Shown here: positions 2,482 through 60,825 of the stretch, in pieces | Layout: each line of letters begins with the position of its first letter | Position numbering within the stretch: the stretch's first letter is position 1 | DNA from: a virus | Virus record (IMG/VR): IMGVR_UViG_3300044801_000208 | Span: 33,809-97,808 of that record | Reading direction: 5' to 3' (one strand) | DNA: 64,000 bases | The notes under the pieces: model-generated | What the model saw: the letters and a program-made list of their open reading frames with translations, nothing else | What the model was told of the DNA's origin: nothing | Databases searched by the model: none | Program-made: the position numbers and the translations under genes

Positions 2482-4812
2482 TTACGAGTTTTCGTCACTT
2501 TGGTATAAGCCTTGTGAATTCACGATGTCGGGTGCCTCGGTCGTGTCCCTAGCAAGGGAGGCGCTTATCGCCTTTTGCTGAGTTTCGATGCGGTCGGTCT
2601 TCACGATGGAGCGCAGGGTCGTGGCCTCCGTGACCATGTCGCCCGTGCAGTGGTACTGGAGGTTGCCCTGGTGCGTGACATCCACGTCCCCTATGATGTT
2701 GAGGCGCATGGCCTTGCCCTGCGCGTTCGGGAGGATCGTGATCTCGATGCCGCCGTCCAGCGCGGCGGTGACGGAGCGCCCCATCAGGTCCTTGCCGAGG
2801 GCCATGACGACGCCGCCCGCGAGGTCCAGCAGGAGGGACTGCCCCGTCGCCGGGTTGGAGCCGAGGCGGAGCAGGAAGTCCATGACCGCGTGCAGGTCCA
2901 GCGAGCGGCCGGAGGAGTCCATGCTCATGACGGGCGGCCCGCTCCAGCTGTAGGGCGGGTAGTCGTTGGCGGACGGGGGCGAGCCCGCCTGCGTGAGGTC
3001 GTGGAACTGGTAAATGCTGTCCCCCGCGCCGTAGGTCGGCCTGCCGGGGCTCTTGGAGTCCACGCGGGAGGAGTCGCCGACCGCGTAGGCCGTCTTGCCC
3101 GGCCCGTCCGCGTAGCCGTTGATGAGGTGCCTGCGGAGGGACTGCGCGTTCTTCGCGCCGAGGCGCAGCACGACGCCGCCGTCCGCCGCCGCCCTGACGG
3201 AGATGTTCTCCCCGCCCACCTTGTTCGTGAGGCTCACGGCGTCGCCGGGGATGAGCCTGGACTTCGCCCAGTACTGCACGGGCTTGCCGTCCGCGTAACG
3301 CTTGGCGGGCGTGTCGCCCTTGCTCCTGATCTGCGTGAGGACGGAGCGCCGCGAGTCCGGCAGAGACGTGTCGTCCGCGCCGAGGCGGAGGACCGACTGC
3401 CCGAGGACCTGCGCGTCTAGCGCGTCCTCCTCGTCGCGGTTCTTGCCGACGACGAGCTTGGCGGAGCCTACGAGGTGCGCCTCAAGGGAGCGCCCGGCCC
3501 CGTGCGGGTGCTCGTAGCCGCCCTGGAGCGGGATGTTCTCCTTCGGCAGAGTGGAGCCGATCTCAAGGCTGGTGAAGCCCTCCTTAGTGACGTCGAGGCG
3601 CGTCGTGTTCTGCTCGTACGGGAACCTGACCGCCAGGCAGGAAGCGGCGAGCCTGGCCTCCTCGTGGTCCGGGGAGTCGACGACCGGGAGGTAGCCCGAC
3701 TCCACGTCCGCGCCGAAGCGCCCGTTGTAGTTGTACGGGAACAGGACGGGCTTGAGCACGTAGCCGTAGGTGGACTTGTCGTAGATGTTGTAGCCGACGA
3801 GCGTGCCCTGCGCCCGCTCCAGGATGTAGGCGCGTCGCGCGGGGGTCGAGCCCTCGTTGAGCGTCGGCCCGACGGCGCTGACCCTGTCGTCGTACGGGTC
3901 GTCCCAGCCCTGGTTGACCGTGAAGGTCTCGTTGTCGTACGCGGGGACGTTCCCGGCCGCCGGGGTGACGGTGGTCCTGCCCCACGGGTCCGCCGTGGTG
4001 CCGAGGATCGTGTCGAGCAGGCTGGTCTGAAGCACCTCGTAGGGCACGGGGTAGTCCAGCGAGTACTCCTGGATCAGCTCCGTGTTCTCGGAGAACGGGA
4101 TCACGTCCTGCTTGCCGCCGACGTAGCGATCGCTGGGCTGCGAGCCGGGCTGGAGGTAGACGATGTAGTCCGACGTGCCGTCCGGCAGGACGACGGGGAC
4201 GACCGTAGGGGCCGTCGTGTTCGGGCGGTTGACGGAACCGACGTACGAGACCCCGGCGTCGTCGTACCCGACCCTGCGCCCGGCGATCTGCGTCCACTGG
4301 CGCTTGTCTGAGTCCGCCTTGTCGCGGTCCATCGCCGCCGACTGCCTGTCCCAGGACGTGTCGACCTTCTCCGAGAAGCCGCCCGTGTAGGAGGACGTTT
4401 TCTGGCCTGGGGTCGCCTTCCGCCACGTGGCGCGGAGGCGGTCGGAGTAGCCCTGAATGCGGTCGCCGGAAATCTGCCTGCTAGCGATGGCGTCCACGCT
4501 GGGGTACTGCTGTGCGTTGACCCAGCCGAGGATCATCACCTGGCGGTAGCCGCGCTCGTAGGAATAGTTCGCGGCCAGGCCGATGGAGCCCTGCTCCGGC
4601 ATGTTCGTGTCGCCGCCGGTGAGCCCGGAGTAGTTCGCCGGAAAAACGCTAATCTCCGAGTAGACAAGCCCGTCCTTGACATCCTCCACGGTCAGGACCT
4701 TCCGCTCGTAGTCCACCGTCAGCACCTCGACGATGAATATCTCGTAGGCGAGCCTGTCGTTGGTGCGGTTGAACGTCGGCCTGTAGTTGCTGTTTTCCCT
4801 TACTGGGGGCAT
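2482..4812 (-). CDS. Putative baseplate spike/hub (gp5/gpV-like) protein, 776 aa
   Basis: N-terminal OB-fold-like segment ending MPEQGSIGL..VMILGW; beta-rich C-terminus; position after a hub-like gene. Confidence 0.55.
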   Translation of the reverse strand: MPPVRENSNYRPTFNRTNDRLAYEIFIVEVLTVDYERKVLTVEDVKDGLVYSEISVFPANYSGLTGGDTNMPEQGSIGLAANYSYERGYRQVMILGWVNAQQYPSVDAIASRQISGDRIQGYSDRLRATWRKATPGQKTSSYTGGFSEKVDTSWDRQSAAMDRDKADSDKRQWTQIAGRRVGYDDAGVSYVGSVNRPNTTAPTVVPVVLPDGTSDYIVYLQPGSQPSDRYVGGKQDVIPFSENTELIQEYSLDYPVPYEVLQTSLLDTILGTTADPWGRTTVTPAAGNVPAYDNETFTVNQGWDDPYDDRVSAVGPTLNEGSTPARRAYILERAQGTLVGYNIYDKSTYGYVLKPVLFPYNYNGRFGADVESGYLPVVDSPDHEEARLAASCLAVRFPYEQNTTRLDVTKEGFTSLEIGSTLPKENIPLQGGYEHPHGAGRSLEAHLVGSAKLVVGKNRDEEDALDAQVLGQSVLRLGADDTSLPDSRRSVLTQIRSKGDTPAKRYADGKPVQYWAKSRLIPGDAVSLTNKVGGENISVRAAADGGVVLRLGAKNAQSLRRHLINGYADGPGKTAYAVGDSSRVDSKSPGRPTYGAGDSIYQFHDLTQAGSPPSANDYPPYSWSGPPVMSMDSSGRSLDLHAVMDFLLRLGSNPATGQSLLLDLAGGVVMALGKDLMGRSVTAALDGGIEITILPNAQGKAMRLNIIGDVDVTHQGNLQYHCTGDMVTEATTLRSIVKTDRIETQQKAISASLARDTTEAPDIVNSQGLYQSDENS

Positions 4813-4819
4813 GTCTTCC

Positions 4820-7741
4820 TTATGACTGCTGCGCCTTGTTCGGCTGCGACATCTTGAACGCCGCTATCTCGGCCAGCGTGTTCAGCTTGGGCGCGATGCC
4901 CTGCGCGGACGTGCCGAACTTCGCGGACTGCGGGAGCGGAGTCAGCGGGTAGGACGGCGGCTTGTTCTGGCTCGCGATCAGGGTCTCCTGGACGGCCGGG
5001 ATCGGCGCGGCGTACCCAGAGACTAATACGTCGACGAGCTGCTGGTCGGCGTTTTGCGCCCCGGCGATGAGGGCAGCGGCGATGGTGTCCTCGGGCTGCG
5101 CGGTGTTGAGGAGGCTCTGGTCGGAGTACACGCCCGGCTGGTCGTACTTCAGCACGATGACCGTGGCGTCGGGCTGGAACGCGGGGTTCTGCTGCTGGCC
5201 GCCCTTCGGGTTGCTGGTGGACGGCGGGATCGCCGTGCTGCTGAGGCCGCCGACCGTGGACTGCAAGGAGGACATGGCGGTGAGGAGCTGGTTGGACGCG
5301 TCGCCGGAGGCGCTGGGCGTGCCGAGCCCGGCGAACAGCAGGGCGTCCGTGCTCTGGAGCACGACCACGTCGTTGAGCGTGAGCGGGGCGTTGGTGCCGA
5401 CCCAGCCAGCCTCCGTGAACTCGTGGATCGCCGCGTTGAGGTTCTGCCACCTGCCCCACGGGAACGGCGCGACGAGCTCGTAGCCCTTGTCGTCCGTGTA
5501 CGGGATGGTCGAGTGCGTGGTCAGGCTGCCGCTCTTGCTCCCTACCAGCTTCTCCATGTACTTGTAGTCCGCCGGGATGAACTGGCCCGCGTTGAAGTAG
5601 CCCTGGTTCGTGCCCGGCGCGATGGTGCCCTGGGCCTGGCTCCCGTCGTTCTTGACCACGTACACGGCCGTCGGCGAGGAGAACGCGTTCTCGTAGGTCT
5701 GCTTGACGACGTTGGATTTGTAGGAGTGAATCTTGACCTGGTCGTTCGACGGGGCGAGCTTCGTGCCGTCCGTGTTCGTGTCCGGGACGGGCAGGGTGGT
5801 CGACGAGCCGACGATGCTGCTGGGGCTCGATCCGCTCTGGCTCACTTGCTGCGGCCCGCCTGCGATGTTGTTGGCGTTGGCCGTGAACACCCCGACGCTG
5901 TTCCCCGGCGACTGGCCCGGGTCGATCGAGGTCGGCTGCTTCGGGTTGTCCGTCCACTGGAGCACGAGGTTCGGGGCGGAGGTGTATGCAGCGTACGACT
6001 TCTGGGTGGTGCCGCCCGTGGACACGGTCTGCCAGGTGTTGACTAGGACCCTGCGGCGCACTGAGTCGCACGTCACCGTCATGGTCGCGGTGCCGCCGAC
6101 CTGGTACTGGATGTTGACGGACTTCACGTACGCGTACATGTCCTTGTGCGGGATGAACACTGGGAACCCGAGCTTGATCTCAGGGCGCAGCGGGATCGTG
6201 ACCGTGTAGGTGCGGTAGCCACGGTTGGCCCTGGCCGTCTCCGCGCAGGCGTGGGCGAACAGGGAAATCTTGTCAAACGGCAGCCACGGCACCATGTAGG
6301 CTGGCTCCTCGCGGAGGCCGAACTTCGCCATTTTAGCGACGTCGGTCCACTCCACGGTCGGCGAGATGTTCGCCGGGTAGTTGATGTTGAGGTCGCGGTC
6401 CTTGTTCCCCGTGAGCGTCGTGCGCGTCCTGCGGATGGCGCTCTGGTCCTCCGTCTCCTGCTCCGTCAGAATCTCCGACAGGTAGATGACGAACGGGTTG
6501 TTGTTCTCGTAAATCTGCGTCAGCGGGTTCGTCAGGCTGTTCGAGCGGGTTCCGCTCGACGGGCTGCTCTGGATCGCGTCCGGCCCGAGGTTCCTGAGCG
6601 TGGACTGCTGGTTGGCCTGCGCCTGCTGGTCCGTGACCACGGGGTCGGAGGTCGTCTGCTGCGAACGCGACCCGAGGTCCGTCACGTCCAGGTTGTAGAG
6701 CGGCGGCTTGATGATGATCTTACCGTCGATGTCCTGGTACCCCTCGAAGTCGATCATGTTCACGACCTGGCGGATCATGTCCAGGCGGTTCACGATGACG
6801 TTGTCTGTGAGGTTCTGCTGGGTGATGGTCTTGAACGGAGCGTACTTCTGGATGTTCTGGTAGTAGGTCTGGTTCGCGTTCTCCTTGACCGACTCCTTCT
6901 GTGCCGTGTGCCTCTGGACGGACGCCGCCTTCGTGTCCTTGCCCGCCTCCTTGTACGCCTTGCTCCTCTGCATCAGCGTCGACTGGCCGAGGTTGTCCTT
7001 GTTCGGGCCGTAGATGTGGACGTCCTTCACCATCTGGAACAGGATCGCCTGCCACTTGGCCATGTAGCCGCGCTGCACGGCGTCAAAGAACGGGTTGCCT
7101 TTTACGAGAGCGTCCTGCTCAAGCGAGGAAAACTGAAAGCCGTCCGACTGGAAACCCTCCGTGAAAATGGCCGCGAGCGTCTCGAAGCAGTCGCAGTTCG
7201 CCAGGATAGACTGCCAGATCGTCAGGTTCGACCCGGTGTTCACGGCAGTGTTCACGGCCGGGTGGATGTTGATCATCATCTTCTCCAGCATGTACATCGC
7301 GCCGTGGCACTGGACGTCGATCTGGAGGGTCTTGCCGTTGTCGTTGTAGCTGATGTGCGAGGTGACGCCCTTGAACACGCGGCGGTAGATCGTGTCGCCC
7401 TGCGAGGACATGTAGTACGCCTTCGCGTAGACCTGTACCTGCGCCATAGTCTGTAGCAGGTTGTTGCCGCCCGGCGTCTGGTACAGGTACTTCTGGAAGT
7501 TCGGCACCTGGAGCCCGATGGAGCAGTTCGGAACGAGCATGTCAGTATCGTACCCTGCGCTGAAGGACGCCACGTGATCGTTGAAGTTGACGAGCGTGTA
7601 CGCCTTCCCGGTGGTCTGGTCGTTCAGGAAGTAGTTAGTCAGGTACGGGAGCCCGTCAATGTAGACGACGACATCGGGTGCCGTCTTGATGATTTCCCTC
7701 TCCTGGCAGGTTTGGGAAATGTTTCTAATCATGCTAGTCAT
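4820..7741 (-). CDS. Putative baseplate hub/tail protein, 973 aa
   Basis: RRVFKGV, FEGYQDIDGKIIIKPP and PLRPEIKLGFPV..YVKSV motifs typical of gp27/hub-like proteins; context. Confidence 0.6.
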   Translation of the reverse strand: MTSMIRNISQTCQEREIIKTAPDVVVYIDGLPYLTNYFLNDQTTGKAYTLVNFNDHVASFSAGYDTDMLVPNCSIGLQVPNFQKYLYQTPGGNNLLQTMAQVQVYAKAYYMSSQGDTIYRRVFKGVTSHISYNDNGKTLQIDVQCHGAMYMLEKMMINIHPAVNTAVNTGSNLTIWQSILANCDCFETLAAIFTEGFQSDGFQFSSLEQDALVKGNPFFDAVQRGYMAKWQAILFQMVKDVHIYGPNKDNLGQSTLMQRSKAYKEAGKDTKAASVQRHTAQKESVKENANQTYYQNIQKYAPFKTITQQNLTDNVIVNRLDMIRQVVNMIDFEGYQDIDGKIIIKPPLYNLDVTDLGSRSQQTTSDPVVTDQQAQANQQSTLRNLGPDAIQSSPSSGTRSNSLTNPLTQIYENNNPFVIYLSEILTEQETEDQSAIRRTRTTLTGNKDRDLNINYPANISPTVEWTDVAKMAKFGLREEPAYMVPWLPFDKISLFAHACAETARANRGYRTYTVTIPLRPEIKLGFPVFIPHKDMYAYVKSVNIQYQVGGTATMTVTCDSVRRRVLVNTWQTVSTGGTTQKSYAAYTSAPNLVLQWTDNPKQPTSIDPGQSPGNSVGVFTANANNIAGGPQQVSQSGSSPSSIVGSSTTLPVPDTNTDGTKLAPSNDQVKIHSYKSNVVKQTYENAFSSPTAVYVVKNDGSQAQGTIAPGTNQGYFNAGQFIPADYKYMEKLVGSKSGSLTTHSTIPYTDDKGYELVAPFPWGRWQNLNAAIHEFTEAGWVGTNAPLTLNDVVVLQSTDALLFAGLGTPSASGDASNQLLTAMSSLQSTVGGLSSTAIPPSTSNPKGGQQQNPAFQPDATVIVLKYDQPGVYSDQSLLNTAQPEDTIAAALIAGAQNADQQLVDVLVSGYAAPIPAVQETLIASQNKPPSYPLTPLPQSAKFGTSAQGIAPKLNTLAEIAAFKMSQPNKAQQS

Positions 7742-7812: not shown

Positions 7813-8954
7813 GGCTTGCCTCCCAGCGTGTCAGTGAAGGGCCCGCCCGGCAGGGTCGGGTCGATCAGCCAGGGCGTGTAGGGCAGGAAATCCGAAGAGG
7901 TCGGGTCGTTCTCTGGGAACGTGTTGGACGCCGTCGACGAGTCCACGGACGGCGACTGGAGCGCGGGCTGCGACTGCGGCGCGACGGGCGGCGGCGGCCC
8001 GTAGGTGACATTGGTCGCGGAGGAGTTCTGCGTCGTGCCCTGCTGCGTCGTCAGGGCGGTCGGCTTCCACGCGCCGTAGGTGTGCCCGCGCTGGACGTTG
8101 TTCGGGATCAGGTTCGCGTACGGGGAGCTCCTGCGGAAACGCTCCTTCCAGGCGACGAAGGTGATGCTGAAGTTCATGAGGTACGGCGCGTTCGCGTCCT
8201 GGGACACGGTCAGGGAGTCGAACATCCCGTACCAAATGAAGTTCCCGACCCAAAGCTCCACGTCCTGGTGCATCTTGATGCGGCGGCGTGTGAAATCGGC
8301 GGCCAGCGGGCCCTCGTTGAGCTGCTCGCCCTCAAACCAGTAGCCGTTGTTCTCGAACACCACTAGGAGCTGCTCAAGGTTACGCCACGACTCCGTGTAC
8401 GGCTGGAGCGCGTCCGTGAGGCCGAAAGAGAAGTACTGCCCCGCCGTCTTGCCGGACATGGTGATGCTGAGGGAGTCCTCGCCCCACACGCCGATCTGCC
8501 AGCCTGCGCGGGTCATGGCCTGTCCGTCAAGCGTGGTGCGGCTGACCTGCACCGTCGCGGGGTTGATCAGGAAGCGGAACACGGCGGGCGGGCCGTTCCC
8601 GGCCGGGGTCCCGGTGGAGGTCAAACCACGGCCGGGGATACGCACGATGACGTAGTCCACGAACGGCTCCATGGCGGCCGTGACGTAGAAGTCACTGCCG
8701 GAGGAGAGCACCGTCCTCCCGGTCGGCCCGTTCGGGGTCGGGGGCGCGTTCCCGGTCTTGAGGAAGGCGTCCGTGACCCCGTCGTTCAGGTCGATCGGAC
8801 TGATCGGGCAGGGGATGATCCTCTTCTCGCCGCGTATCGGGAGCTGGGTCGGCGAGACGCCGGAGGCCTGGGCCCCGTCCGGCCGAACGTCGCTGAGGTC
8901 CGGGCTGTTCGCGTTCGTGTTCACCTGCGCGTTGTTGGCGTTGCTGCTGGGCAT
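7809..8954 (-). CDS. Putative virion (tail tube initiator/baseplate-like) protein, 381 aa
   Basis: FLINP..V....TRAGW....WGE...I.MSGKT and YGMFDSL pattern; resembles the C-terminal domain of the upstream gene. Confidence 0.55.
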   Translation of the reverse strand: MPSSNANNAQVNTNANSPDLSDVRPDGAQASGVSPTQLPIRGEKRIIPCPISPIDLNDGVTDAFLKTGNAPPTPNGPTGRTVLSSGSDFYVTAAMEPFVDYVIVRIPGRGLTSTGTPAGNGPPAVFRFLINPATVQVSRTTLDGQAMTRAGWQIGVWGEDSLSITMSGKTAGQYFSFGLTDALQPYTESWRNLEQLLVVFENNGYWFEGEQLNEGPLAADFTRRRIKMHQDVELWVGNFIWYGMFDSLTVSQDANAPYLMNFSITFVAWKERFRRSSPYANLIPNNVQRGHTYGAWKPTALTTQQGTTQNSSATNVTYGPPPPVAPQSQPALQSPSVDSSTASNTFPENDPTSSDFLPYTPWLIDPTLPGGPFTDTLGGKP

Positions 8955-16879: not shown

Positions 16880-17171
16880 GACACTCAATACCGGAACCAT
16901 CAGTATGAGCAAAGATTTCCAGACGGCATTCCCAGAGGACTTCGAGCAGGAGCCGGACCCGAACGTCATCATGTGCAGATGGGGGTGCGGGCAGCCAGCG
17001 AAGTACGGGAACCTGAGGCCGGGCTTGCAGGGCGGCGACCCGCCGTGCTGCTCGGGCGACCCGAAGACCGGGCGCGTAAGCAAGGGGGAGTGCCCCGCAA
17101 TCAAAGGGGCCGCCTTGAGGGCGGCCCGGAGGGCTGGGCGGCTAGGCCGAAGGTGGCAGAGCCGCTTCTGA
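16878..17171 (+). CDS. Small Cys-containing hypothetical protein
   Basis: CRWGCG, CC and C residues; plausible codon bias; start uncertain. Confidence 0.45.
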   Translation: MTLNTGTISMSKDFQTAFPEDFEQEPDPNVIMCRWGCGQPAKYGNLRPGLQGGDPPCCSGDPKTGRVSKGECPAIKGAALRAARRAGRLGRRWQSRF

Positions 17172-17180
17172 TCTGAAATT

Positions 17181-17255
17181 TGGTAGCCCTGAGCGGTATC
17201 GATCCGCCTTCCGCGCCTTGAGAGGGTGCTGTCCTAGCCAGTAGACGACAGGGCC
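17181..17255 (-). tRNA. tRNA-Glu(CTC)
   Basis: Cloverleaf, loop CT-CTC-AA, encoded CCA; atypical T loop. Confidence 0.8.
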
Positions 17256-17262
17256 ACTTTCT

Positions 17263-17373
17263 GCTGGTACAGCTCGCGCCCGCCCAGGCGCGGTTGCTTG
17301 CGCCAGCGGAGCGGCGGGCGGGGAACCCACTCCGGCGCTGAAAGTCGCACTCTGGCCTCTGAGTTAACAGCGC
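17263..17373 (-). pseudogene. tRNA 5' half fused to unrelated GC-rich sequence
   Basis: GCGCTGTTAACTCAGAGGCCAGAGTG D-arm present; no T arm. Confidence 0.5.
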
Positions 17374-17378
17374 GAACT

Positions 17379-17454
17379 TGGTAGGGTATAGGAGAATCGA
17401 ACTCCTCATCATCTGATTGAAAGTCAGAGGTCCAAACCGATAGACGGATACCCC
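17379..17454 (-). tRNA. tRNA-Glu(TTC)
   Basis: TCTGA-CTTTCAA-TCAGA, GTTCGATTC, CCA. Confidence 0.9.
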
Positions 17455-17487
17455 ATCTCTAAATTTACTCCCGCGTGCTCCTAAATT

Positions 17488-17563
17488 TGGTGGACCTAGT
17501 CGGGATCGAACCGACGACCTCTTCCATGCCATGGAAGCGCGCTCCCAGCTGCGCTATAGGCCC
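17488..17563 (-). tRNA. tRNA-Ala(GGC)
   Basis: CTTCC-ATGGCAT-GGAAG, G3:U70, ACCA. Confidence 0.95.
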
Positions 17564-17566
17564 AGC

Positions 17567-17655
17567 GAACGGCTTTCGGCAGGTACAGGATTCGAACCCG
17601 CGTCTCCGGCTGCCCGGAATCCTAAGCCACTAGACGAACCCCTACTCGCCGTTCT
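17567..17655 (-). ncRNA. tRNA-like RNA with a 4-nt anticodon loop and extended acceptor helix
   Basis: D arm, TCCGG-GCAG-CCGGA, GGTTCGAATCC, closing helix GAACGGC/GCCGTTC; no CCA. Confidence 0.6.
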
Positions 17656-17679
17656 TTGCGTCGTGCACGGACGCAATCT

Positions 17680-17755
17680 TGGTAGCGCACGAGGGACTCG
17701 AACCCTCATTTCACACGCTGAGAACGTGGTTGCCTAGCCGTTAGCAGAGTGCGCC
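17680..17755 (-). tRNA. tRNA-Glu(CTC), second copy
   Basis: CACG-TTCTCAG-CGTG, GGTTCGAGTCC, CCA. Confidence 0.85.
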
Positions 17756-17761
17756 GAAACT

Positions 17762-17837
17762 TGGTGGACCTAAGGGGGCTCGAACCCCTGACCTCATCGT
17801 TGCGAACGATGCGCTCTCCCAACTGAGCTACAGGCCC
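17762..17837 (-). tRNA. tRNA-Ala(CGC)
   Basis: CATCG-TTCGCAA-CGATG, ACCA. Confidence 0.95.
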
Positions 17838-17847
17838 AACTTCAAAC

Positions 17848-17924
17848 TGGAGCGGCTGGCGGGATTTGAACCCGCGATCTCTTCCATGGCAAGGAAGCAT
17901 TCTACCAGGCTGAACTACAACCGC
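17848..17924 (-). tRNA. tRNA-Gly(GCC)
   Basis: CTTCC-TTGCCAT-GGAAG, TCCA. Confidence 0.95.
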
Positions 17925-17938
17925 GTATTTCCAATCTT

Positions 17939-18007
17939 TGGAGCGAGAGACCGGACTCGAACCGGCAGTCTGAGCACACTGTCGTTGTAATCCATTCCAC
18001 ACCGCTC
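17939..18007 (-). pseudogene. Degenerate tRNA-like element
   Basis: T arm GCCGGTTCGAGTCCGGT and CGCTCCA end; non-canonical D and anticodon arms. Confidence 0.55.
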
Positions 18008-18019
18008 ATAGTCAAAATT

Positions 18020-18183
18020 TTTGCTGCGTTTACGTCCCAGTCGGTCGATGGCTTTTACCCCATCGCGTCAGTCGGGGCATTCGCCGAGGCTGACGGACAT
18101 TCCGTGGTCGTCGAATCTCGTAGCCGAAGCTACGGCGTTTTTCTACCCACTTAAGGGAGTCCACGCGGATGCCACGCAGCAAA
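18020..18183 (-). ncRNA. Unclassified multi-helix structured RNA (~165 nt)
   Basis: Terminal helix TTTGCTGCGT/ACGCAGCAAA, CGTAGC-TTCG-GCTACG, CGTCAG/CTGACG, CGATGG/CCATCG. Confidence 0.65.
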
Positions 18184-18193
18184 CCTCTAAACT

Positions 18194-18268
18194 TGGAGCG
18201 GGTTACCGAAATCGAATCGGTCTCTGTGGCTTGGAGGGCCACGGCACCGCCAGTTATACCTAACCCGC
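18194..18268 (-). tRNA. tRNA-Gly(TCC)
   Basis: GTGGC-CCTCCAA-GCCAC, TCCA; C33 instead of U33. Confidence 0.85.
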
Positions 18269-18754
18269 TAAACGATAAAACTTTCCACACTGACTACTTT
18301 CTCGCGTTTGTTTATTGGTAGCGATCAGCCCCTTGTTCCTGTCCTCCGCTGTCTTTACTGCGTGACAGTTCGCACAACGTACGTCACATTTGGCTATTTC
18401 GTCCAAAACTCGCTGCCGACCTTTAGTCCAACCTTGGGCCAAATTGAACTTCTTTTCCTTTGGATCGCGATGGTCGAAGTGCAGGGCTGCTGCGTATTCC
18501 TTGTACCCACAATCCTTGCACCCCAGTTCCAGCTTTACAGAGTCAATCCATTTTCTGCGAGCGGCATACCGGTAATCTCTTGCACGACGGTTGCAGATAG
18601 TTTTTGTTTCTTTACGCTCTTCCGGCGTTTTTACCTGCGTTGAATCTTTGCAGACCCGTGTACAGAAAAATATTTTGTGCTTACACAGCTTGTACCGCGA
18701 CGGGTATATGTCAAAGTCATTTTTGCAAACCCAACATTGAACCGTTATCATCAC
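18260..18754 (-). CDS. HNH homing endonuclease within the tRNA operon
   Basis: GCKDCG, ALHFDHRDP..K, KCDVRCANCH; the 3' end overlaps tRNA-Gly. Confidence 0.85.
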   Translation of the reverse strand: MMITVQCWVCKNDFDIYPSRYKLCKHKIFFCTRVCKDSTQVKTPEERKETKTICNRRARDYRYAARRKWIDSVKLELGCKDCGYKEYAAALHFDHRDPKEKKFNLAQGWTKGRQRVLDEIAKCDVRCANCHAVKTAEDRNKGLIATNKQTRESSQCGKFYRLAG

Positions 18755-18800
18755 TATTTGCTCCCCCTACTTTGAATACTGTAGAAGGAGCAAATAGTTA

Positions 18801-19162
18801 ATTTACGCGACCTATAAGCGGGGTTCTGTAAGCACCGAAGTGCCCGACAGCCATTCGTCTAATCCACCTATTACTAGGCGGCTCAAGCCCCTAACCCGCA
18901 GATTGATAACGAACCGAGCAAGCTCTCTCTGCCTATTTAGGGTTGCTTCACGCAAGGTTTGCCATGCAACGACTGTTACCAGCCGCCCGGTGGTCTCTTA
19001 AACCGCCTTTTCACCCTTACCGTCTTGCGACGGCGGTATATTCTCTGTGGCACTGTCTATCACGGTTACCCGTGTCCGGGTGTTACCCGGTGCGCTGCTC
19101 TATGTAGCCCCGACTTTCCTCCCCCGTAAAATCACAGCGGCGACTGTCCGGTCAACGTAAAA
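18801..19162 (-). ncRNA. rnpB: RNase P RNA, bacterial type A
   Basis: GAGGAAAGTCGGGGCT (CR-I), AGTGCCACAGAGAA..ACCGCC, AGGGTGAAAAGGCGGT.TAAGAG, GGCAAACC, ACAGAACCCCGCTTA (CR-V); P1 helix TTTACG/CGTAAA. Confidence 0.95.
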
Positions 19163-19164
19163 TT

Positions 19165-19241
19165 TGGAGGTCCGGGGGAGAATCGAACTCCCGCATTTTC
19201 ACGTTTGCAGCGTGACGCCTTACCGTCTTGGCTACCGAACC
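19165..19241 (-). tRNA. tRNA-Cys(GCA)
   Basis: TCACG-CTGCAAA-CGTGA, TCCA. Confidence 0.9.
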
Positions 19242-19246
19242 AAACT

Positions 19247-19356
19247 AATTGGATCAAGTGCTCTACTACTGAGCTACACCCGCCATCTGTCGATAGCCGA
19301 AGCGTGACAGTGGGCGGGAGGGCGGGTACGAGACCGCCGACCTCCTGATCCAAACT
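19247..19356 (-). ncRNA. Circularly permuted tRNA-like RNA (YrlA/Y-RNA-like architecture)
   Basis: Order is anticodon-stem 3' strand, T arm, acceptor stem closed by a TTCG hairpin, D arm, anticodon-stem 5' strand; the ends pair (TTGGATCAGG/CTTGATCCAA). Confidence 0.75.
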
Positions 19357-19430
19357 TGGCGGGGCGTACGGGAGTCGAACCCGTGTGTCTCGGTAGACAG
19401 CCGAGTAAATTGCCGTCATTCTCACGCCCC
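19357..19430 (-). tRNA. tRNA-Asp(GTC)
   Basis: CTCGG-CTGTCTA-CCGAG, GCCA; pyrimidine at position 37. Confidence 0.85.
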
Positions 19431-19504
19431 GGACGCCGAGACGGGAATCGAACCCGTGAATAAACGTTTTGCAGACGTTCGCCTTACCACTTGGCTACTC
19501 AGCT
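19431..19504 (-). tRNA. tRNA-Cys(GCA), second copy
   Basis: AACGT-CTGCAAA-ACGTT; ends TCC abutting tRNA-Asp; 1:72 mismatch. Confidence 0.75.
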
Positions 19505-19518
19505 TACACAAAAATTAT

Positions 19519-19590
19519 GCCGCGATGATTAAGGGGCTGATCCCCATCCCGGCGCTCCGAAGAGCCTTCCGGTATCTATCGCCGTCGCGG
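19519..19590 (-). ncRNA. Unclassified three-way-junction RNA
   Basis: CCGCGA/TCGCGG closing helix, CCGG..GCTC-TTCG-GAGC..CCGG, GGGG-ATCAG-CCCC. Confidence 0.5.
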
Positions 19591-19601
19591 ACGACACACT
19601 C

Positions 19602-19671
19602 TGAGCGCTGTATCCACGTCTTAGGTGGGTGTTCTTCACAGACCGCTAAGTCTGGTACTGGACAGCGCTCA
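19602..19671 (-). ncRNA. Unclassified three-way-junction RNA with complementary loops
   Basis: TGAGCGCTGT/ACAGCGCTCA, CAGAC-TTAGCG-GTCTG, CCAC-CTAAGAC-GTGG. Confidence 0.55.
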
Positions 19672-19675
19672 AACT

Positions 19676-19750
19676 TGGTGGACACAGGGAGATTCGAACT
19701 CCATAGTTCTCATTGCAAGTGAGACGCATTCCCAATTATGCTACTGGCCC
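19676..19750 (-). tRNA. tRNA-Ala(TGC)
   Basis: TCTCA-CTTGCAA-TGAGA, ACCA; imperfect acceptor stem. Confidence 0.85.
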
Positions 19751-19762
19751 ACATTCAAAACT

Positions 19763-19838
19763 TGGTGCGCTGGAAGGGACTCGAACCCCCGATGAGTGTC
19801 TTGTAAGGGCACCGCTTTAGCCGCTAAGCTACCCGCGC
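19763..19838 (-). tRNA. tRNA-Val(TAC)
   Basis: Loop CT-TAC-AA, GGTTCGAGTCC, ACCA. Confidence 0.9.
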
Positions 19839-20231
19839 AAATCTCTCTACGTACTCTGCCGCAAGCCTCAATAGGTTCGCTCGGTCGCGAAAATGACCAA
19901 GCCCTAAATTACACCCGCGACACAAAAACCCACGAGCTATATCCGTCTCGTGATTATGATCTAAGTGGGCCTTCCTGAACCCACCCTCGATTATTTCAGT
20001 ACACACGGCGCAATGCCCTTGCTGTCCCGTCCACAAAGTTTGAAGCTCTTCTTCGCTCAAACCTAATCGAGTTCTCTTCCTCTGACTTCGATTTGTGCGT
20101 TCACATCCCGCACAGAACGGGCGGCGTCCGCTCTTCCGGCTGACATCTGGATAAAATTCTCCCAGCTTCAACCATGCTTCACATCTTGGACACCACTTCT
20201 CGTGTTCATTAAACTTTTTGTTTCGTCCCAT
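19824..20231 (-). CDS. Endonuclease VII-family homing endonuclease
   Basis: QQGHCAVC, LDHNHET..ARGFLCRGCNLGLG; the 3' end overlaps tRNA-Val. Confidence 0.85.
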   Translation of the reverse strand: MGRNKKFNEHEKWCPRCEAWLKLGEFYPDVSRKSGRRPFCAGCERTNRSQRKRTRLGLSEEELQTLWTGQQGHCAVCTEIIEGGFRKAHLDHNHETDIARGFLCRGCNLGLGHFRDRANLLRLAAEYVERFARVA

Positions 20232-20252
20232 TCTGGACAATACTCGGAAAAT

Positions 20253-20284
20253 AAAAAAGGACGCTCACTTTTCAGTGGCGTCCT
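20253..20284 (-). terminator. Intrinsic terminator of the putative attenuator
   Basis: AGGACGC-CAC-TGAAAA-GTG-A-GCGTCCT followed by a T run. Confidence 0.8.
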
Positions 20285-20332
20285 CGGAATCTCTGTTGGG
20301 TGGCTATTTAGCCGACTCGACCCTCCGAGGAC
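20280..20332 (-). promoter_or_regulatory. Antiterminator hairpin
   Basis: GTCCTCGGA/TCCGAGGAC (9 bp) plus GGGT/ACCC and GGCT/AGCC; sequesters GGAC of the terminator's 5' arm. Confidence 0.7.
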
Positions 20333-20427
20333 ATGGTATCTCCCTCCGCCGCTTCGGCGGCGACCGTACCTGCACACACGACGACTGCGGCGGATACGAC
20401 GGTCGAGTTGGAGTTGAAGGAGTTCAT
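20308..20427 (-). CDS. Putative attenuator leader peptide, 39 aa
   Basis: AGGA RBS 7 nt before ATG; MNSFNSNSTVVSAAVVVCAGTVAAEAAEGDTMSSEGRVG; its stop lies inside the antiterminator. Confidence 0.65.
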   Translation of the reverse strand: MNSFNSNSTVVSAAVVVCAGTVAAEAAEGDTMSSEGRVG

Positions 20428-20446
20428 GTCTCTATCCTGATACTGC

Positions 20447-20475
20447 ATATTCGCAAAATCTGCGGAAACTGTCAA
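20447..20475 (-). promoter_or_regulatory. Sigma70-like promoter of the tRNA operon
   Basis: TTGACA-17 nt-GAATAT. Confidence 0.55.
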
Positions 20476-20489
20476 GCGAAAAATCGCGA

Positions 20490-20612
20490 TGGCGCGGGAG
20501 GGGCCGGTTGCCAGTCCGACATCAGGCCCTGGTCGGGGATTCCCGGCCGTTGCTTTCGGCGGGTGCTCTTTGGGCTGCCGCCCTAGCGTTTGAGCTACAC
20601 CTTCCCGCGCCA
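20490..20612 (-). ncRNA. Unclassified structured RNA with a D-arm-like element
   Basis: TGGCGCGGGA/TCCCGCGCCA terminal helix, TAGCTCA..., several internal hairpins, preceded by the AGTTT spacer. Confidence 0.55.
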
Positions 20613-20617
20613 AACTT

Positions 20618-20735
20618 GCCGGGTGCCCGCTGTGGCTCCCCGCGCTGCACCCTGACTCCGTGTTGCCAAAGTGTTTCCCCCAGCATCTCTTGGCCCGGTG
20701 AATACAGGGTCGGAGTCGGGGGCTGCGGCGCGGCT
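20618..20735 (-). ncRNA. Long irregular hairpin RNA
   Basis: GCCCACTG/CAGCGGGC, CCGCGC/GCGCGG, CCCCGACTCCG/CGGAGTCAGGG. Confidence 0.45.
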
Positions 20736-21139
20736 CAGTGGGCTATTCACGCCCTTTGTCCCTCTGGGCTGTTTATCCTCTGGGGACGAGCGGCGGTTTC
20801 CCGCAGGCTAAAATCAATCTCTCATGTATAGTACTGCAAAGTCAAGGTTTTTCTTCGCGAAGCGGACTTTTTGGGAACCTACCCCTTCGGTGGGCCCCCT
20901 ACCACGGCTTGCGCCGGGGTACTTTTTGCGGGCCTTGGTACTTGCTGACGCTTTCCCTGCCCAGACCGTCTAAAGGTTTTGGGGCGGTGGATGCCGCCCC
21001 GTTGAGAGTGGTTTCCTAGGCCGTAGAAGGCGCGGAACGACAGCGTGGCCACGCTGAGGCCGCCGGAGCGCCAAAACTTGCTGGACGGATTGTGTACCGT
21101 CGCCAGGGAACCCGACCCCTGTCCGTTGCCTTCGCTCCC

Positions 21140-21826
21140 TCACAGTATACGCTGGGCGCGGCAGGATCGTCCGGAACCCTCCTGTATCTGCTGAATCAGT
21201 ATCTTGCGACCCCTCAGGAGCCTGGACTTGAGCGCCGCCATGGGGATCAGGACGGGGGTGCCGTCCTTCTTGCGGTGGACGGGGCCGAGGACGCGGCGGA
21301 TGTCCTTGTTCCGCATGCCCTCCCAGAAGCGGAGGCGGAGTATCTCGCGGTACGCCGTCGGCACGCGGGTGATCGCACGCCTCAGAACCTCCCGGTCGGC
21401 CACGCCCTCCAGGCACAGGTCGCGGACGGAGAGCCTCACGGCTACCTTCCTGCCGTACGTCTCGCCGCTGAGCTCCTGGTCCAGGGAGACCTCGTTGCGG
21501 CACGCCTGCGTGTTCTCGTGCCTCAGGTGTTGCAGCCCCTCGTTGATTGCGATGCGGGTGACCCAGGTGGAGAACTTGGACTGCTCGTCGAACGTCCCGA
21601 GCTTCTGCCAGACCTTCGTGAGCGCGACGTTCGCCAGCCACTCGGCCTGGTCCTCGTCGTGCACGATGCGGCTGATGACGATCCGCAGGCGGTTGTGGTG
21701 GTGGGCGTAGAGCGCGGTGAACGCCGCCTCTTCGCCGCCCTTGGCGCGGCGGACCAGCTCAAGCTCCTCCGGCGAGTCGTAGACCTTGCGCTTCAGCGCG
21801 GGTGCTGCGGCTGCTGATGCTCCCAT
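21140..21826 (-). CDS. ECF-type RNA polymerase sigma factor
   Basis: ELVRRAKGGEEAAF..LY, FDEQSKFSTWVTRIAIN (region 2), YREILRLR...KSRLLRGR (region 4); GAGGA RBS. Confidence 0.9.
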   Translation of the reverse strand: MGASAAAAPALKRKVYDSPEELELVRRAKGGEEAAFTALYAHHHNRLRIVISRIVHDEDQAEWLANVALTKVWQKLGTFDEQSKFSTWVTRIAINEGLQHLRHENTQACRNEVSLDQELSGETYGRKVAVRLSVRDLCLEGVADREVLRRAITRVPTAYREILRLRFWEGMRNKDIRRVLGPVHRKKDGTPVLIPMAALKSRLLRGRKILIQQIQEGSGRSCRAQRIL

Positions 21827-28831: not shown

Positions 28832-30030
28832 TTGATGCTCCCAGAGCAAGCTCTGGGATTCTTAGGCTACGCATAGCACAGTTCTGCTTACGTTGACGCC
28901 CAAGGGCTCCATCCGAGCCCACTTTGTTTTAGCCCTCGCCAGTATGCGTTTGGAGGCGTTGGTATCGCTGTGATCTTCGTGGTTACAGAAGATGCACTTG
29001 AACTTCTCACCCTTCCGATTATCTGGATGTGATCTCTCACATTTGTCGCATTCCTGGCTTGTGTACTGCGGTGGAACGATTCCTATAGTCCTGCCAGCGC
29101 TTTCAGCCTTGTAGGACGTGAACCATCTCCACATGCTCCAACCTGCGTCCAGAATCTGTTTCGGCAAATACCCGGCCATGTTTTGGACCCGCAAGTTTTC
29201 CATCGCTATGAACCCAAATTTTTTGACGATCTTCGTCGTCTCTTTATGCAAAAAGTCCAGGCGTTTGCTCCTGATCTTTTCGTGCAGTTTCCGAAGCAGG
29301 ATTACAGCTTTGGCTCGACTATGAGACTTCTTGTTCTTGCGTCTCGCAAGCCTACGTTGAGCAATCCTTAACTCGGGTTGGGCGTTCTCGTAGATTCTTG
29401 GGTTCTCCACAAAAGTCCCGTCGCTCAGGGCGGCGAACTTCGTGATCCCAAGATCAATGCCGGCCTCAAAGTCAGACACTGGCAATGGCGTGGGCTCGTG
29501 CTCAAAAGTGAGGATGGCGAACAGTCCGTTGACCGTGTTCAGGATGGTGCATGTTTTTATCTCGGCATCCTTCGGAAGTTCCCTGCTCAACCTGAGTTTG
29601 ACGTTCCCGATCTTGGACAAACTCAAGATATTGCCGTTGAGCGAAAATCCACTTTGGGGGTAGGTGAACGAGTTGTAGCGTCTCGCCGACTTGTATCTGG
29701 GGAATCCAAACCCCCGCCTGAAGAAGCCATTGAATGTCTTGTCCAACCTGTCCAAGACATTCTGTAGGACTTGGGAATACACATTCTTGAGGACTGGAAA
29801 AGTTGCCTTGAGTCCTGGGAGTTCCTTGTCCTGGTCAAATCTACGGCACGTGTTTCCACTCCTGTGGTTGAGGTTCCGTTGGAACAACGAGTCGTTGTAG
29901 AGGTCTCGGCACACATCTAGGGTTCTGGCAATGGCGTATCTCTTCGCCTTGTTCGCCACAATTTTGTATTTGTGTGCTTTTAGCATCATTGTCTAATACT
30001 CCAAACGACGCCCCTGGGCTTTCGGGGCTA
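28832..30030 (-). mobile_element. IS200/IS605-family TnpB-only element
   Basis: Right end GAATCCCAGAGC-TT-GCTCTGGGAGCATCAA; left hairpin GCCCC/GGGGC; no tnpA. Confidence 0.75.
28862..29989 (-). CDS. tnpB: TnpB RNA-guided endonuclease
   Basis: CRDLYN, GFPRYK, GIDLG, AMENL, YTSQECDKC..CIFC, DTNAS; RuvC D-E-D triad present. Confidence 0.95.
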   Translation of the reverse strand: MMLKAHKYKIVANKAKRYAIARTLDVCRDLYNDSLFQRNLNHRSGNTCRRFDQDKELPGLKATFPVLKNVYSQVLQNVLDRLDKTFNGFFRRGFGFPRYKSARRYNSFTYPQSGFSLNGNILSLSKIGNVKLRLSRELPKDAEIKTCTILNTVNGLFAILTFEHEPTPLPVSDFEAGIDLGITKFAALSDGTFVENPRIYENAQPELRIAQRRLARRKNKKSHSRAKAVILLRKLHEKIRSKRLDFLHKETTKIVKKFGFIAMENLRVQNMAGYLPKQILDAGWSMWRWFTSYKAESAGRTIGIVPPQYTSQECDKCERSHPDNRKGEKFKCIFCNHEDHSDTNASKRILARAKTKWARMEPLGVNVSRTVLCVA

Positions 30031-39722: not shown

Positions 39723-42700
39723 ATGGACGAGTTCTTCGACGACAGCCTGGTCGACATAGCGCCCGCCGCCAAGGACCTCACCCTTGAGCGGTCCGGCCTC
39801 CTCCGCGACCACTTCCCGTTCGACGAGGTCCGCGCCAACCAGGAGCACACCCTGGACAGGCTCGCGGCCTGGAACCAGTCCCCCAAGAAGTTCTTCGTCC
39901 TTGAGGGCCCGACTGGCTTCGGCAAATGCTTCGCCCCCGGTACTCCCGTTTTGATGCACGACGGTACGGTTAGGACGATCCAAGACGTGCGAGTCGGAGA
40001 CTCGTTGATGGGGGACGACTCCACCCCTCGCCGAGTGCTTTTGCTGTCGCACGGCTTTGACCAGATGTTTGACGTAGTCCCTGTTAAAGGTGACAGCTAT
40101 AGGGTCAACAGCCGCCACATTCTCAGCCTGAAGTTCACGAAAGGCATCGGGACAAAGGGAACCTACTCCAACAACCAAAAATCCCAAGTCCCGCAGTACC
40201 GTAGGCTGGGAATCAAAGCCGGTCCAGGTGCAACGATCGACATCCCCCTCAGCGACTATCTTGATTTGTCAAAGAGCCAAAAACACATCCTCAAAGGCTA
40301 CCGCGTAGGCGTTGAATTCCCCGCGCAAGACGTGCCCATTGACCCGTACTTCCTCGGCCTCTGGCTGGGCGACGGAGACAAGGACAGGCCTGCGGTGACA
40401 ACCGCTGATCCTGAAATCGGTGGGTTTTTGTGCGGTTACGCGAAAGAACTTGGGCTTTCTGTCAACTCTCAGTTTCACAACGGCGCATACACGAGAGACT
40501 TGAACACCGGGAAGCGCGGAGGAAACCCGAAAAGTCGGGAGAAAAACCCGCTACTTGAGGGGTTCCGCGGCCTCTCCGTGCTGAATAACAAGCACATTCC
40601 TCTGCTGTACAAGCGCAACTCTAGGGAAGTCCGGATGAAGGTGCTGGCGGGCGTCGTGGACTCCGACGGGAGCAGGGTCAAAGGCGGGTATGAGTTCACT
40701 CTGGAAATAAAGCGCCTAGCCGAGGACCTGACGTACCTTTGTCGCTCCCTTGGGTTCGCGGCGTACATGAAGCCCTGCGAGAAGACCTGCACCAACGGCA
40801 AGAATGGCCCCGCGACGGGGCGGTACTACCAAGTCCTGATGTCCGGCTTCGGCGTTGAAAAAATCCCGTCTACATTGATACGCAAACAGGGCCTCCCAAG
40901 AAAGCAGAAAAAAGACCCGCTTGTCACAGGGATAAAAGTCCTGCTAGCGGGTTACGGGGAGTTCTTTGGATTCTCCGTGGACGGAAACGAACGGTTTCTG
41001 CTTGGTGACTTTACGGTAGTGCACAACTCCCCCGTCGCGATCGCCGAGGCCTCCTTCGCCAAGACCATGCCCGGCTTCGGGGAGTTCTCCCCCGGCGCAC
41101 ACATCCTCACCCCGCAGAAGACCCTCGCCGCGCAGTACATGGACGACTTCGCCCGCTTCGGCCTCAAGGAGCTCAAGGGGCGGGCCAACTACCACTGCGA
41201 CAAGTGGACGGACATTAACGGGGAGGACATCGACTGCGAGATCGGCGCGATGCTCAACGACTCGGGCGGCCTGGACGAGCGGTGCGACCACTGCCCGTAC
41301 CGCGCCGACAAGGACCGCTACATCGCCTGCCCGCTCGGCACCACGAACTTCTCCTACTACCTGAACGAGGCCCGCTTCGCCGGGGAGCTCCCGAGGCGCA
41401 ACATGCTGATCCTCGACGAGGGCCACAACACCGAGGAATGTCATCCGCCGGAGACGGAAATAGATATTTGTGTCGGTTTCGAGAAGCAGGGACGGCAAAG
41501 GACAGCCAAGACCCGATCTTTTCCAATCGCCTCACTGACAGACGGGCAGAAGGCAGTTTCGTGGAACCGCGCCTCTGACAGTCTCCATCTCTCCGGCAGG
41601 CAAATTCGCGTAGGTCAACGTCAGTACACAGGCACTATGCTGACGGTGGAATCCGGGGGCAAGAAAACCCGTGTCACACCTAACCACTGGTTTTGGGTGA
41701 GGTTCAATTCAACAGCACGCAAGAAGTATATTTTGTACCTGATGCACAAGGAGGGTTATGGATACCGCATTGGGGTTACAAGATTCCGCTCCGCCAGCCA
41801 GCATGGACTCGGTCTGGTGTCCAGAATGCGGCAGGAGGGAGCGGATAAGGGCTGGGTGTTGGCGCTGTACGATTCTTATTCCGAAGCTGCGAAGTGGGAA
41901 AAGACTTATTCGCTGAAACACGGAATCGCCGATACCTGTTTTCGCGCTAGGAAAAACGTTCTTCAGTCAGACATCAAAGACATTTTCCTCTCCACGCGCG
42001 AGAGGGGTGCTCTCGCCTGTTTAAGGGACCACGGGCGGTACGCGGAGTACCCGATCTGGGAAACTTCCCCGCGTGCGGGGCACAAAGGATACTTCAAGGT
42101 GCGTGCCTGTAATCTCTTGCCGGAAGTCATGGACCTGCCCGCCAGAAAAACAAAAACCAGAGGCGAAAGGCGGCGGCTTATTTTAGACAAAAGCACGACT
42201 GTGACCAGCGCGACCTCAAATCAGTACACGGGAATGGTCTATTCATTAGACGTAGCTGAAGACCACACGTATGTCGCCGATGGGATGATCGTCGGCAACT
42301 GCATTCTCTCCCTGACGGACACGGTCATAGACAAGGACAGGTGCGAGAAGTACGGGGTCCAGGGCAGGCTCCCGGAGTTCGACGAGGGGGACAACGAGGC
42401 GGTGCTCGCGTGGCTCGACGCCGCGTTCATACCAGCGGCGCAGCAGCACGCCGTCGCCCTCGGCAGGAGGATGAGGGAGGCGCGGGACAGCGACAGGGCC
42501 TCCGTCGTGAAGAAGGTCAACGCCCTGGAGCGGTTCCTCCTGCGGGTCAACATGTTCCGCAACTCCGAGGACCCGGCGGAGTGGTTCGCGTGGACGGACG
42601 CGCAGACCAAGGCCCTGACGATCAAGCCGCTCACGGGCCGCCTGTTCGCCGACGACTTCCTGTTCTCCAAGGCGCAGAAGGTCCTGATCTTGTCCGCCAC

Positions 42701-60300: not shown

Positions 60301-60825
60301 ATGGGCAAAGTGGGCACCAGTCGAACGATTGATCTTTTGGGTCAGGCCTTCAACCGATTCACCGTCCTCAAGAAAATAGGGCTGAACAAGTCTAGGTCAG
60401 CCGTGTGGGCGTGCAAGTGCGTATGTGGTGCACGTACGAAAGTTGTGGGTTCTGACCTCATCCGTGGTCGAATAAAGAGCTGCGGATGCCTTGCCAGGCA
60501 TGGAAAATGCAAGACAGTAGAATACGCGATTTTCCACTCCGCCAAGCACCGCGCTAAGCTCGGGAAAATTCCCTTCACTCTAAAACTGAGTGACATAGTT
60601 GTCCCTCTGATCTGTCCTGTCCTTGACATCCCGATTCATCGTCACGTCAAAAAACTACGCGAGGACAGCCCGTCCCTTGAGCGTATCTATCCAACAGAAG
60701 GGTACGTTCTCGGCAACGTGGCTGTCATCAGCCACAAAGCCAATCGAATGAAGGGGGAATCAACCCCTGAAGAACTGATAGCCCTTGGTGAGAAGTTCCG
60801 GAGGCTGCATGCGACTCTCCGGTAG
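60301..60825 (+). CDS. HNH-like homing endonuclease
   Basis: WACKCVCG, SCGC, CPVL, SPSLER..GYVLGNV.VIS.KAN. Confidence 0.85.
   Translation: MGKVGTSRTIDLLGQAFNRFTVLKKIGLNKSRSAVWACKCVCGARTKVVGSDLIRGRIKSCGCLARHGKCKTVEYAIFHSAKHRAKLGKIPFTLKLSDIVVPLICPVLDIPIHRHVKKLREDSPSLERIYPTEGYVLGNVAVISHKANRMKGESTPEELIALGEKFRRLHATLR

Follow-up and report, generated by a model that had tools for sequence, protein, structure and literature searches.

A putative leader-peptide attenuator ahead of the tRNA and RNase P RNA array of a giant soil phage

Introduction

What decides when a phage transcribes its tRNA genes? The role and expression of phage tRNA genes have been debated for about fifty years, and the roles proposed include codon compensation, making good the loss of degraded host tRNAs, and evasion of defences that target tRNA. 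The locus described here raises the question in a specific form. It lies in a stretch of 64,000 nucleotides (the window), bases 33809–97808 of a 97.8-kb virus fragment record (IMGVR_UViG_3300044801_000208, ~31% complete) that belongs to a giant soil phage. On the minus strand of the window, a 39-codon open reading frame (ORF) with a promoter and a terminator of its own stands before a group of tRNA genes and an RNase P RNA gene, and an initial annotation, made from the letters of the DNA, proposed that this ORF is the leader of a ribosome-dependent attenuator whose control codons match the tRNAs downstream. Here we follow this proposal through the anatomy of the locus, its homologues, and the other tRNA arrays of related phages. 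The outcome makes it likely that read-through from a host-type promoter into the phage tRNA array is gated by a transcription attenuator of the ribosome-mediated (leader-peptide) kind.

Results

Promoter, ribosome-binding site and leader ORF

The features of the leader and its array are on the minus strand, and the promoter, AGGA, ORF, hairpin, antiterminator arms and terminator of the leader are, when read directly, each found where the initial annotation had placed them. The -35 hexamer TTGACA (20470–20475) is followed, after a 17-nt spacer that ends in TGc, by the -10 hexamer GAATAT (20452–20447), giving an extended -10 element, TG-c-GAATAT (20447–20455). These sigma-70-type hexamers are identical in the window, in one metagenome contig (L002) and in one complete phage genome (G002), with spacers between them that vary. 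A consensus scanner makes no promoter call at this site because the -10 hexamer agrees with the consensus at only three of six positions. A Shine-Dalgarno-like AGGA (20435–20438) sits 7 nt 5' of the ATG; the AGGATAGAGAC-ATG context is kept across the homologues, with a renewed GAGGA site in a second complete phage, G001. The leader ORF itself spans 20308–20427, with its ATG at 20427 and, after 39 codons, a TAA at 20310–20308.

A GAGTATT or CAGTATC motif is found ~12 nt 5' of the leader ATG in all five homologues (20440–20446 in the window), and again 3' of the terminator in the window (20240–20247, inside an endonuclease cassette) and in the contig L003. This motif could be a phage-specific promoter or start signal that is able to bypass the attenuator.

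The region upstream of the leader promoter has features of its own. Between the promoter and a sigma-factor gene lies a GC-rich stretch of ~350 nt without an ORF (20489–20846), for which Rfam returns no match. Its 5' end, CTTTGCAGTACTATACATGAGAG (~20845–20823), resembles the -10 regions of the other leader promoters of G002, and the stretch is conserved in G002 and in L002 (75% over window 20668–20846). G001 and L003 have an equivalent upstream element, whose end is a tRNA-like T-arm and acceptor called by neither ARAGORN nor Rfam. The gene just upstream (21140–21760) encodes an ECF-type sigma-70 family protein (Sigma70_r2, r4_2); the annotated 374-aa ORF probably starts later, since the GC3 signal begins near 21780.

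The tRNA array and its insertions

The putative regulated unit (17181–19838) contains 12 tRNA genes identified by ARAGORN (Val, Ala x3, Cys x2, Asp, Gly x2 and Glu x3), which are limited to the six amino acids first named for it, together with a class-A RNase P RNA identified by Rfam (18800–19159). An HNH endonuclease ORF (18260–18754) lies inside the array between the RNase P RNA and a tRNA-Gly, and the array is closed by a terminator-like hairpin of eight G-C pairs followed by CTTTGATT (17107–17127).

The leader precedes this operon as the initial annotation held, but an endonuclease VII gene that had gone unnoticed intervenes. The cassette (19849–20247) carries an ORF of 138 aa (19824–20240) that matches PF02945 (E 1e-18) and phrog_2633, extends 15 nt into tRNA-Val, and is without the strong third-position GC bias typical of the phage's own genes. 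The cassette is absent from L002, L004, G001 and G002, and because L002 and L004 join window position 20248 directly to 19848, it is an insertion. Judged from these junctions, the ancestral layout is one with the terminator ~17 nt before tRNA-Val. An early worry was that a GTATT motif just after the terminator could bypass it; the motif is real, but it belongs to the inserted cassette, which has its own GAGTATT and could thereby supply a bypass promoter in the window phage. In most relatives, the terminator T-tract ends between a few and ~20 nt 5' of the first tRNA, which leaves no space for a separate promoter, so that these arrays should be reachable only by read-through.

In G001, small ORFs are likewise inserted after the terminators of its Tyr/Leu (L021 ~1587–1815) and Ile/Thr/Gln (L019 oriented 4236–4620) leaders, and with the window cassette these make the gap between terminator and first tRNA look like an insertion hotspot. 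Elsewhere in the window there is a TnpB/IS605 OrfB-like gene (28862–29989), and two large genes (39723–43364 and 60785–63073), one of them a helicase, are split by Hint and homing-endonuclease (intein) domains.

Mutually exclusive antiterminator and terminator hairpins

The antiterminator is a 53-nt hairpin (20280–20332; -24.1 kcal/mol, z -4.2) in which a 5' arm within codons 32–35, GTCCTCGGA (20332–20324), is complementary to a 3' arm, TCCGAGGAC (20288–20280), and the leader TAA lies near the apex. Shuffles of this segment fold at -13.2 +/- 2.6 kcal/mol, with 0 of 200 as stable, and the 11-bp complementarity of the arms has P = 0.002 against shuffles. Four homologous antiterminators (-24.1 to -25.8 kcal/mol, z -4.8 to -5.7) share the outer helix and have unrelated inner helices. 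Covariation of the hairpins had been named at the outset as a check: the outer helix is maintained through G-U changes, but these changes are one-sided and double compensatory changes are absent.

The intrinsic terminator (20248–20283) consists of a 10-bp stem with one bulge and a GAAA loop (20283–20259; -18.4 kcal/mol) followed by the T-tract T6AT4 (20258–20248), and it is present in the minimum-free-energy fold of the full-length leader. The bulge explains why a consensus scanner does not call it. The terminator is exactly conserved in the three metagenome contigs, and G001 and G002 have different stems in the same place. As the 3' end of the antiterminator, GGAC(G), is also the start of the terminator stem (an overlap of only 4–5 nt in the six-amino-acid class), the two structures are mutually exclusive at the bases that adjoin the T-tract; when folded separately, the antiterminator has -24.1 kcal/mol versus -18.4 kcal/mol for the terminator.

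A further hairpin, P1 (20346–20363), with CGCCGC/GCGGCG at 20362–20347, forms 7 bp around a CGAA loop (-12.1 kcal/mol) inside the control-codon block. Its position is conserved, and because L003 substitutes an unrelated stem, GATACC/GGTATC, what is kept is the structure and not the sequence. Other leader classes also have small P1-like hairpins, and P1 may be a hairpin at which RNA polymerase pauses. Pairing of the trp 1:2 kind, which would join the start region to the 5' arm of the antiterminator, was considered as well; it is seen in the window and G001 but not in G002, and was dropped as not conserved.

Conservation of the leader in related phages

Relatives were reached by two routes. An exact search with the window terminator sequence retrieved the three metagenome contigs (L002–L004), and found no match among viral contigs. 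The 16-nt invariant block of the leader led to two complete giant phages, G001 (463 kb) and G002 (332 kb), whose proteins are 25–74% and 50–84% identical, respectively, to those of the window phage. The neighbouring sigma-factor protein retrieved no relatives from the viral contigs, and blastn matches to isolated phages were confined to the tRNA and RNase P segments. In both G001 and G002, the homologous leader heads an array made up only of Val, Ala, Gly, Asp, Glu and Cys tRNAs plus the RNase P RNA.

The ATG-AAC start, the open frame and the TAA stop are kept in five homologous leaders of 39–46 codons, which are ~70–80% identical at the nucleotide level and differ in length by whole codons only. 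None of the five has a stop in the leader frame, while frame +1 is interrupted by stops in every one of them and frame +2 in every one except the window. Conservation does not extend to the middle of the peptide, and yet each of the five leaders contains all six array amino acids. The invariant 16-nt block includes third codon positions, and the C-terminal DTMSS motif of the peptide is also invariant. Pfam has no family that matches the leader ORF; Rfam has none over the leader or its relatives at gathering score, and none in window 19800–21300 at E values up to 10. The proposed layout of a ribosome-dependent attenuator is not peculiar to the window, but is present and conserved in the five homologues, uORF included.

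It is very improbable that such an ORF is a chance product of GC-rich DNA beside the terminator of an upstream unit, for although GNN codons are common at 61% GC and 6 of 157 small ORFs match about as well, chance would not account for a start, frame and stop that survive in five homologues at this level of divergence while nearly all of them have stops in the other two frames, nor for a conserved promoter of its own and antiterminators with z of -4 to -6.

Codon content of the window leader

In the control-codon block (codons 10–30, 20338–20400), 19 of 21 codons encode Val, Ala, Cys, Gly, Glu or Asp, and none of codons 1–9 do, in agreement with the counts given originally. Each of the 10 distinct anticodons in the array finds a cognate codon in the leader ORF; for five GTC Val codons, the window's own array offers no strict-wobble reader. 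Overall, 23 of 38 leader codons encode the six amino acids of the array, against a background of 0.37 (binomial P 0.0025). This enrichment, which had been suggested as a check, holds against the binomial expectation but is weaker when compared with windows taken from within genes, where anticodon coverage has P 0.038 and codon match P 0.065. Taken by itself, the window has a modest codon match, and the caution first voiced, that GNN codons are common in GC-rich DNA, is a fair one for a single window with P of only 0.04–0.07 against in-gene windows.

Leaders matched to other tRNA arrays

Related phages offer a stronger comparison, as their tRNA genes (69 matches in G001 and 49 in G002) are sorted into arrays by amino acid. 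Leader classes number six in G001 and four in G002, and the arrays they head are Ser; Trp/His/Arg/Asn/Gln/Lys; Ile/Thr/Gln; the six-amino-acid block; Tyr/Leu; and Pro/Met/Phe. A third phage, the cultured Tunturiibacter phage Tunturi_5 (PP885688.1, 309 kb), has a UvsX-like protein in common at 44% identity. Together, G001, G002 and Tunturi_5 contain nine further leader ORFs, in eight classes unlike that of the window, before arrays that differ in content.

The further leaders of G001 and G002 have a TTGACA- or TGGACA-type promoter on their 5' side and a hairpin with a T-run on their 3' side. A clear antiterminator is found in every class except Pro/Met/Phe, whose leaders have no clear canonical terminator either, and which may operate in another way. 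The Pro/Met/Phe arrays are headed by the first two 'tRNA-Pro' calls (L014 of G002, 8071–8259; L021 of G001, 6545–6751), which are 81–93 nt long and have no Rfam support above its cut-off. Pattern scans with the Pro/Met/Phe and Ile/Thr/Gln leaders matched only G001, G002 and a near-identical copy of G002.

The composition of the leaders follows that of the arrays. The Ser array, for example, consists of four Ser tRNAs and a Leu-UAA, and its leader contains eight Ser codons, of all six kinds, and one TTA. Matching codons make up 13 of 28 and 16 of 30 in the Ile/Thr/Gln leaders, and the Tyr/Leu, Pro/Met/Phe and Trp/His/Arg/Asn/Gln/Lys leaders match their own arrays as well. When every leader is scored against every array, the true pairing is the best among all 720 (G001), 24 (G002) and 6 (Tunturi_5) permutations. 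Per-class P values in G001 and G002 range from 1e-5 to 2e-2, with anticodon coverage of 5/5 to 12/13, and Fisher's combined P over the six independent G001 classes is 3e-11.

Tunturi_5 groups its tRNAs in its own distinct way, as Leu/Cys/Tyr/Ser, Gln/Gly/Thr/Pro/His/Ala/Phe, and Trp/Asp/Met/Lys/Val/Arg/Glu, and a small ORF with a terminator stands before each array (L063 865–963, 8931–9044 and 21282–21431). The terminators lie near L063 positions 1015, 9095 and 21490. These leaders follow the Tunturi_5 groupings (P 3e-5, 4e-3 and 1.5e-5; coverage 8/9, 13/14 and 13/13). One of them, 21282–21431, is annotated as hypothetical gp308, and neither leaders nor attenuation come up in the publication on Tunturi_5 (PMC11924767). 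The prediction that each tRNA cluster has its own matching leader is thus borne out for the main arrays of G001, G002 and Tunturi_5. No leader was found for the Gln/Lys/amber-suppressor arrays of G001 and G002.

Two or three tRNAs with a CUA anticodon are present in each of G001 (L019) and G002 (L016), in these leaderless Lys/Gln arrays, and such amber suppressors suggest that TAG is perhaps decoded as a sense codon at some point. TAG closes two of the leader ORFs, one for Pro/Met/Phe in G002 and one in Tunturi_5.

Ribosome position and the terminator decision

In the classes with a canonical terminator, the nascent RNA, folded up to the terminator loop, pairs the 5' arm of the terminator with a segment of the ORF that lies just 3' of the matched codons. 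A footprint model places the ribosome on this RNA: the antiterminator is intact when the A site is on the matched codons, and is lost once the ribosome moves further 3'. Across eight independent classes, 104 of 158 codons in the zone that permits the antiterminator are matched codons, compared with 36 of 109 beyond it (P 1e-7). Antiterminator arms were set by hand for this test, since automated detection missed them in the six-amino-acid class, in one leader of Tunturi_5 and in the Pro/Met/Phe leader; the Pro/Met/Phe class, with no clear canonical terminator, was omitted. In the window, the footprint of a ribosome stalled anywhere in the control block other than codons 29–30 does not reach the antiterminator 5' arm; taken alone, the window has no enrichment in the permissive zone (17 of 27 versus 6 of 11 matched codons).

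Folding with ribosome footprints masked had been proposed at the start, and its result depends on how the RNA is treated. Folds of the nascent RNA switch with ribosome position, but equilibrium folds of the full leader favour the terminator at almost any ribosome position, from which we infer that the switch would have to be kinetic, as it is in classical attenuators. Tested against shuffles, the stabilisation energy reached significance for only 7 of the 15 leaders, and the window (35 of 100) was not one of them.

One point of the original proposal has to be turned around. It held that stalling frees the antiterminator, whereas in the folds a stalled ribosome simply leaves the antiterminator unmelted, and it is a ribosome running to the stop codon that destroys it. 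The antiterminator also forms without any ribosome, so the default state is predicted to be read-through.

Discussion

From the sequence anatomy, its conservation and the matching of leaders to arrays, we infer translation of the leader, a kinetic competition between the two hairpins, and the direction of regulation, and we propose the following mechanism. Host RNA polymerase would start at TTGACA/GAATAT, and a ribosome would load on the 39-codon leader. The default fold of the RNA would be the antiterminator, with codons 32–35 as its 5' arm and the first bases of the terminator stem in its 3' arm. If codons 10–30 are decoded quickly, the ribosome would melt the 5' arm while the polymerase makes the terminator; the terminator could then form, and transcription would end at 20248–20258. 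If matching charged tRNAs are scarce, any slow codon would stall the ribosome upstream, the antiterminator would survive, and the polymerase would continue into the endonuclease VII cassette, the 12 tRNAs and the RNase P RNA. The phage thus probably transcribes the tRNAs of the array only when ribosomes decode the matching codons slowly. In the related phages, which divide their tRNA genes into several blocks, each leader would be written in the amino acids of its own block.

Alternative explanations

The strongest alternative, which we nonetheless consider unlikely, is a translation-coupled terminator that senses general translation capacity without any codon-specific sensing, the amino-acid match being secondary. 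Such a sensor draws on the same RNA, as the antiterminator persists whenever leader translation slows or fails, a nascent RNA without any ribosome still forms it, and the codon match is weak for this window alone. What separates the two readings is the specificity of the match between leader and array. A general sensor would not need the true pairing to be the best of 720, 24 and 6 permutations, a rare TTA codon in a leader whose array holds tRNA-Leu(UAA), or matched codons that are concentrated in the permissive zone.

Still less probable, in our estimate, is that the ORF is an independent small gene (a micropeptide) or the transcript a small RNA, with a leaky terminator and with the tRNAs expressed by constitutive read-through or from other promoters. 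The conserved ORF with its invariant C-terminal DTMSS would suit a functional peptide, and the GAGTATT motif 3' of the terminator would suit another promoter in the window phage. The peptide is variable in its middle, however, and has no Pfam family match, while nucleotide features such as the 16-nt block and the hairpins are kept. Its composition tracks the downstream array across nine unrelated classes, and the relatives have no space for a promoter between the terminator and the first tRNA.

Comparison with known systems

A leader-peptide attenuator specific to the tRNAs of its array, the reading we favour, has well-known counterparts in the amino-acid operons of enterobacteria: ilvGMEDA/ilvL, ilvBN/ivbL, thr/thrL, trpL, hisL, leuL and pheL. 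Common to both are a short ORF that comes directly after a sigma-70 promoter, a cluster of regulatory codons for more than one amino acid, and an antiterminator that competes with an intrinsic terminator, with ribosome position deciding between them; the Ile/Thr/Gln leaders of the relatives resemble thrL in style. The phage leaders differ in that no conserved 1:2 (anti-antiterminator) pairing was found in them, that the stop codon lies inside the antiterminator, and that up to seven amino acids would be sensed by one leader, and the setting is a phage. The targets differ as well. In the place of biosynthetic enzymes or synthetases, the window leader has downstream of it 12 tRNAs, the RNase P RNA and two homing-type endonuclease ORFs, and because the regulated genes are tRNAs and RNase P RNA, the product of the attenuator would directly restore the quantity that is sensed.

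Closer in target is E. coli pheST with its pheM leader, where phenylalanyl-tRNA synthetase is attenuated by charged-tRNA supply. Here too a leader peptide controls a component of the translation apparatus through charged-tRNA supply, but pheST is cellular and concerns one amino acid and a synthetase gene, while the phage system would control tRNA genes in sets. T-box riboswitches also report tRNA charging through a terminator/antiterminator decision and have translation-related targets, but uncharged tRNA binds to them directly, with no ribosome or ORF involved. No Rfam match to a T-box, with its Stem I specifier loop and conserved antiterminator sequence, was found in window 19800–21300 at E values up to 10, or at gathering score in the relatives.

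The nearest published case is the trn operon of Anabaena sp. PCC 7120, a long array of accessory tRNAs that stays silent until impaired translation induces it (PMC8421152). Unlike the phage attenuator, this operon is controlled at its promoter, by the repressor TrcR on direct repeats (PMC8421152, PMC10272220); neither paper contains the word stem 'attenuat' or leader peptides. In antibiotic-sensing leader-peptide attenuators such as mef/mel(msrD), a ribosome stalled on a leader ORF prevents terminator formation and termination occurs when translation runs freely (PMC4335068), but there a drug acting with the nascent peptide, and not cognate tRNA supply, causes the stall, and it is resistance genes that are controlled. 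Full-text literature searches returned no account of leader-peptide attenuation of tRNA genes, and phage tRNAs as a route round tRNA-targeting defences have been discussed without leader attenuation (PMC10264068, PMC12409363). The mechanism is classical; the target, tRNA genes, is new.

Implications for phage tRNA supply

More tentatively, this phage lineage may have split its whole tRNA complement into sensor-gated regulons, with leaders that gauge decoding per codon family so that only scarce tRNAs, plus the RNase P RNA, are topped up. We regard this wider picture as possible, though on balance we would lean against it. If true, the regulons would equip the phage with a built-in defence against the decay of host tRNAs and against immune systems that cleave tRNA, of which anticodon nucleases, PARIS AriB and retron effectors are examples (PMC10264068, PMC12409363), and would explain why tRNA genes are sorted by amino acid in these phages. 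As Tunturi_5 has the same architecture and is available in culture alongside its Tunturiibacter host, a leader-peptide sensor ahead of each tRNA block lends itself to direct bench tests. Should such a sensor operate, the phage would regulate its tRNA supply by direct feedback from decoding speed, and textbook attenuation would extend to stable RNA genes, including that of RNase P RNA.
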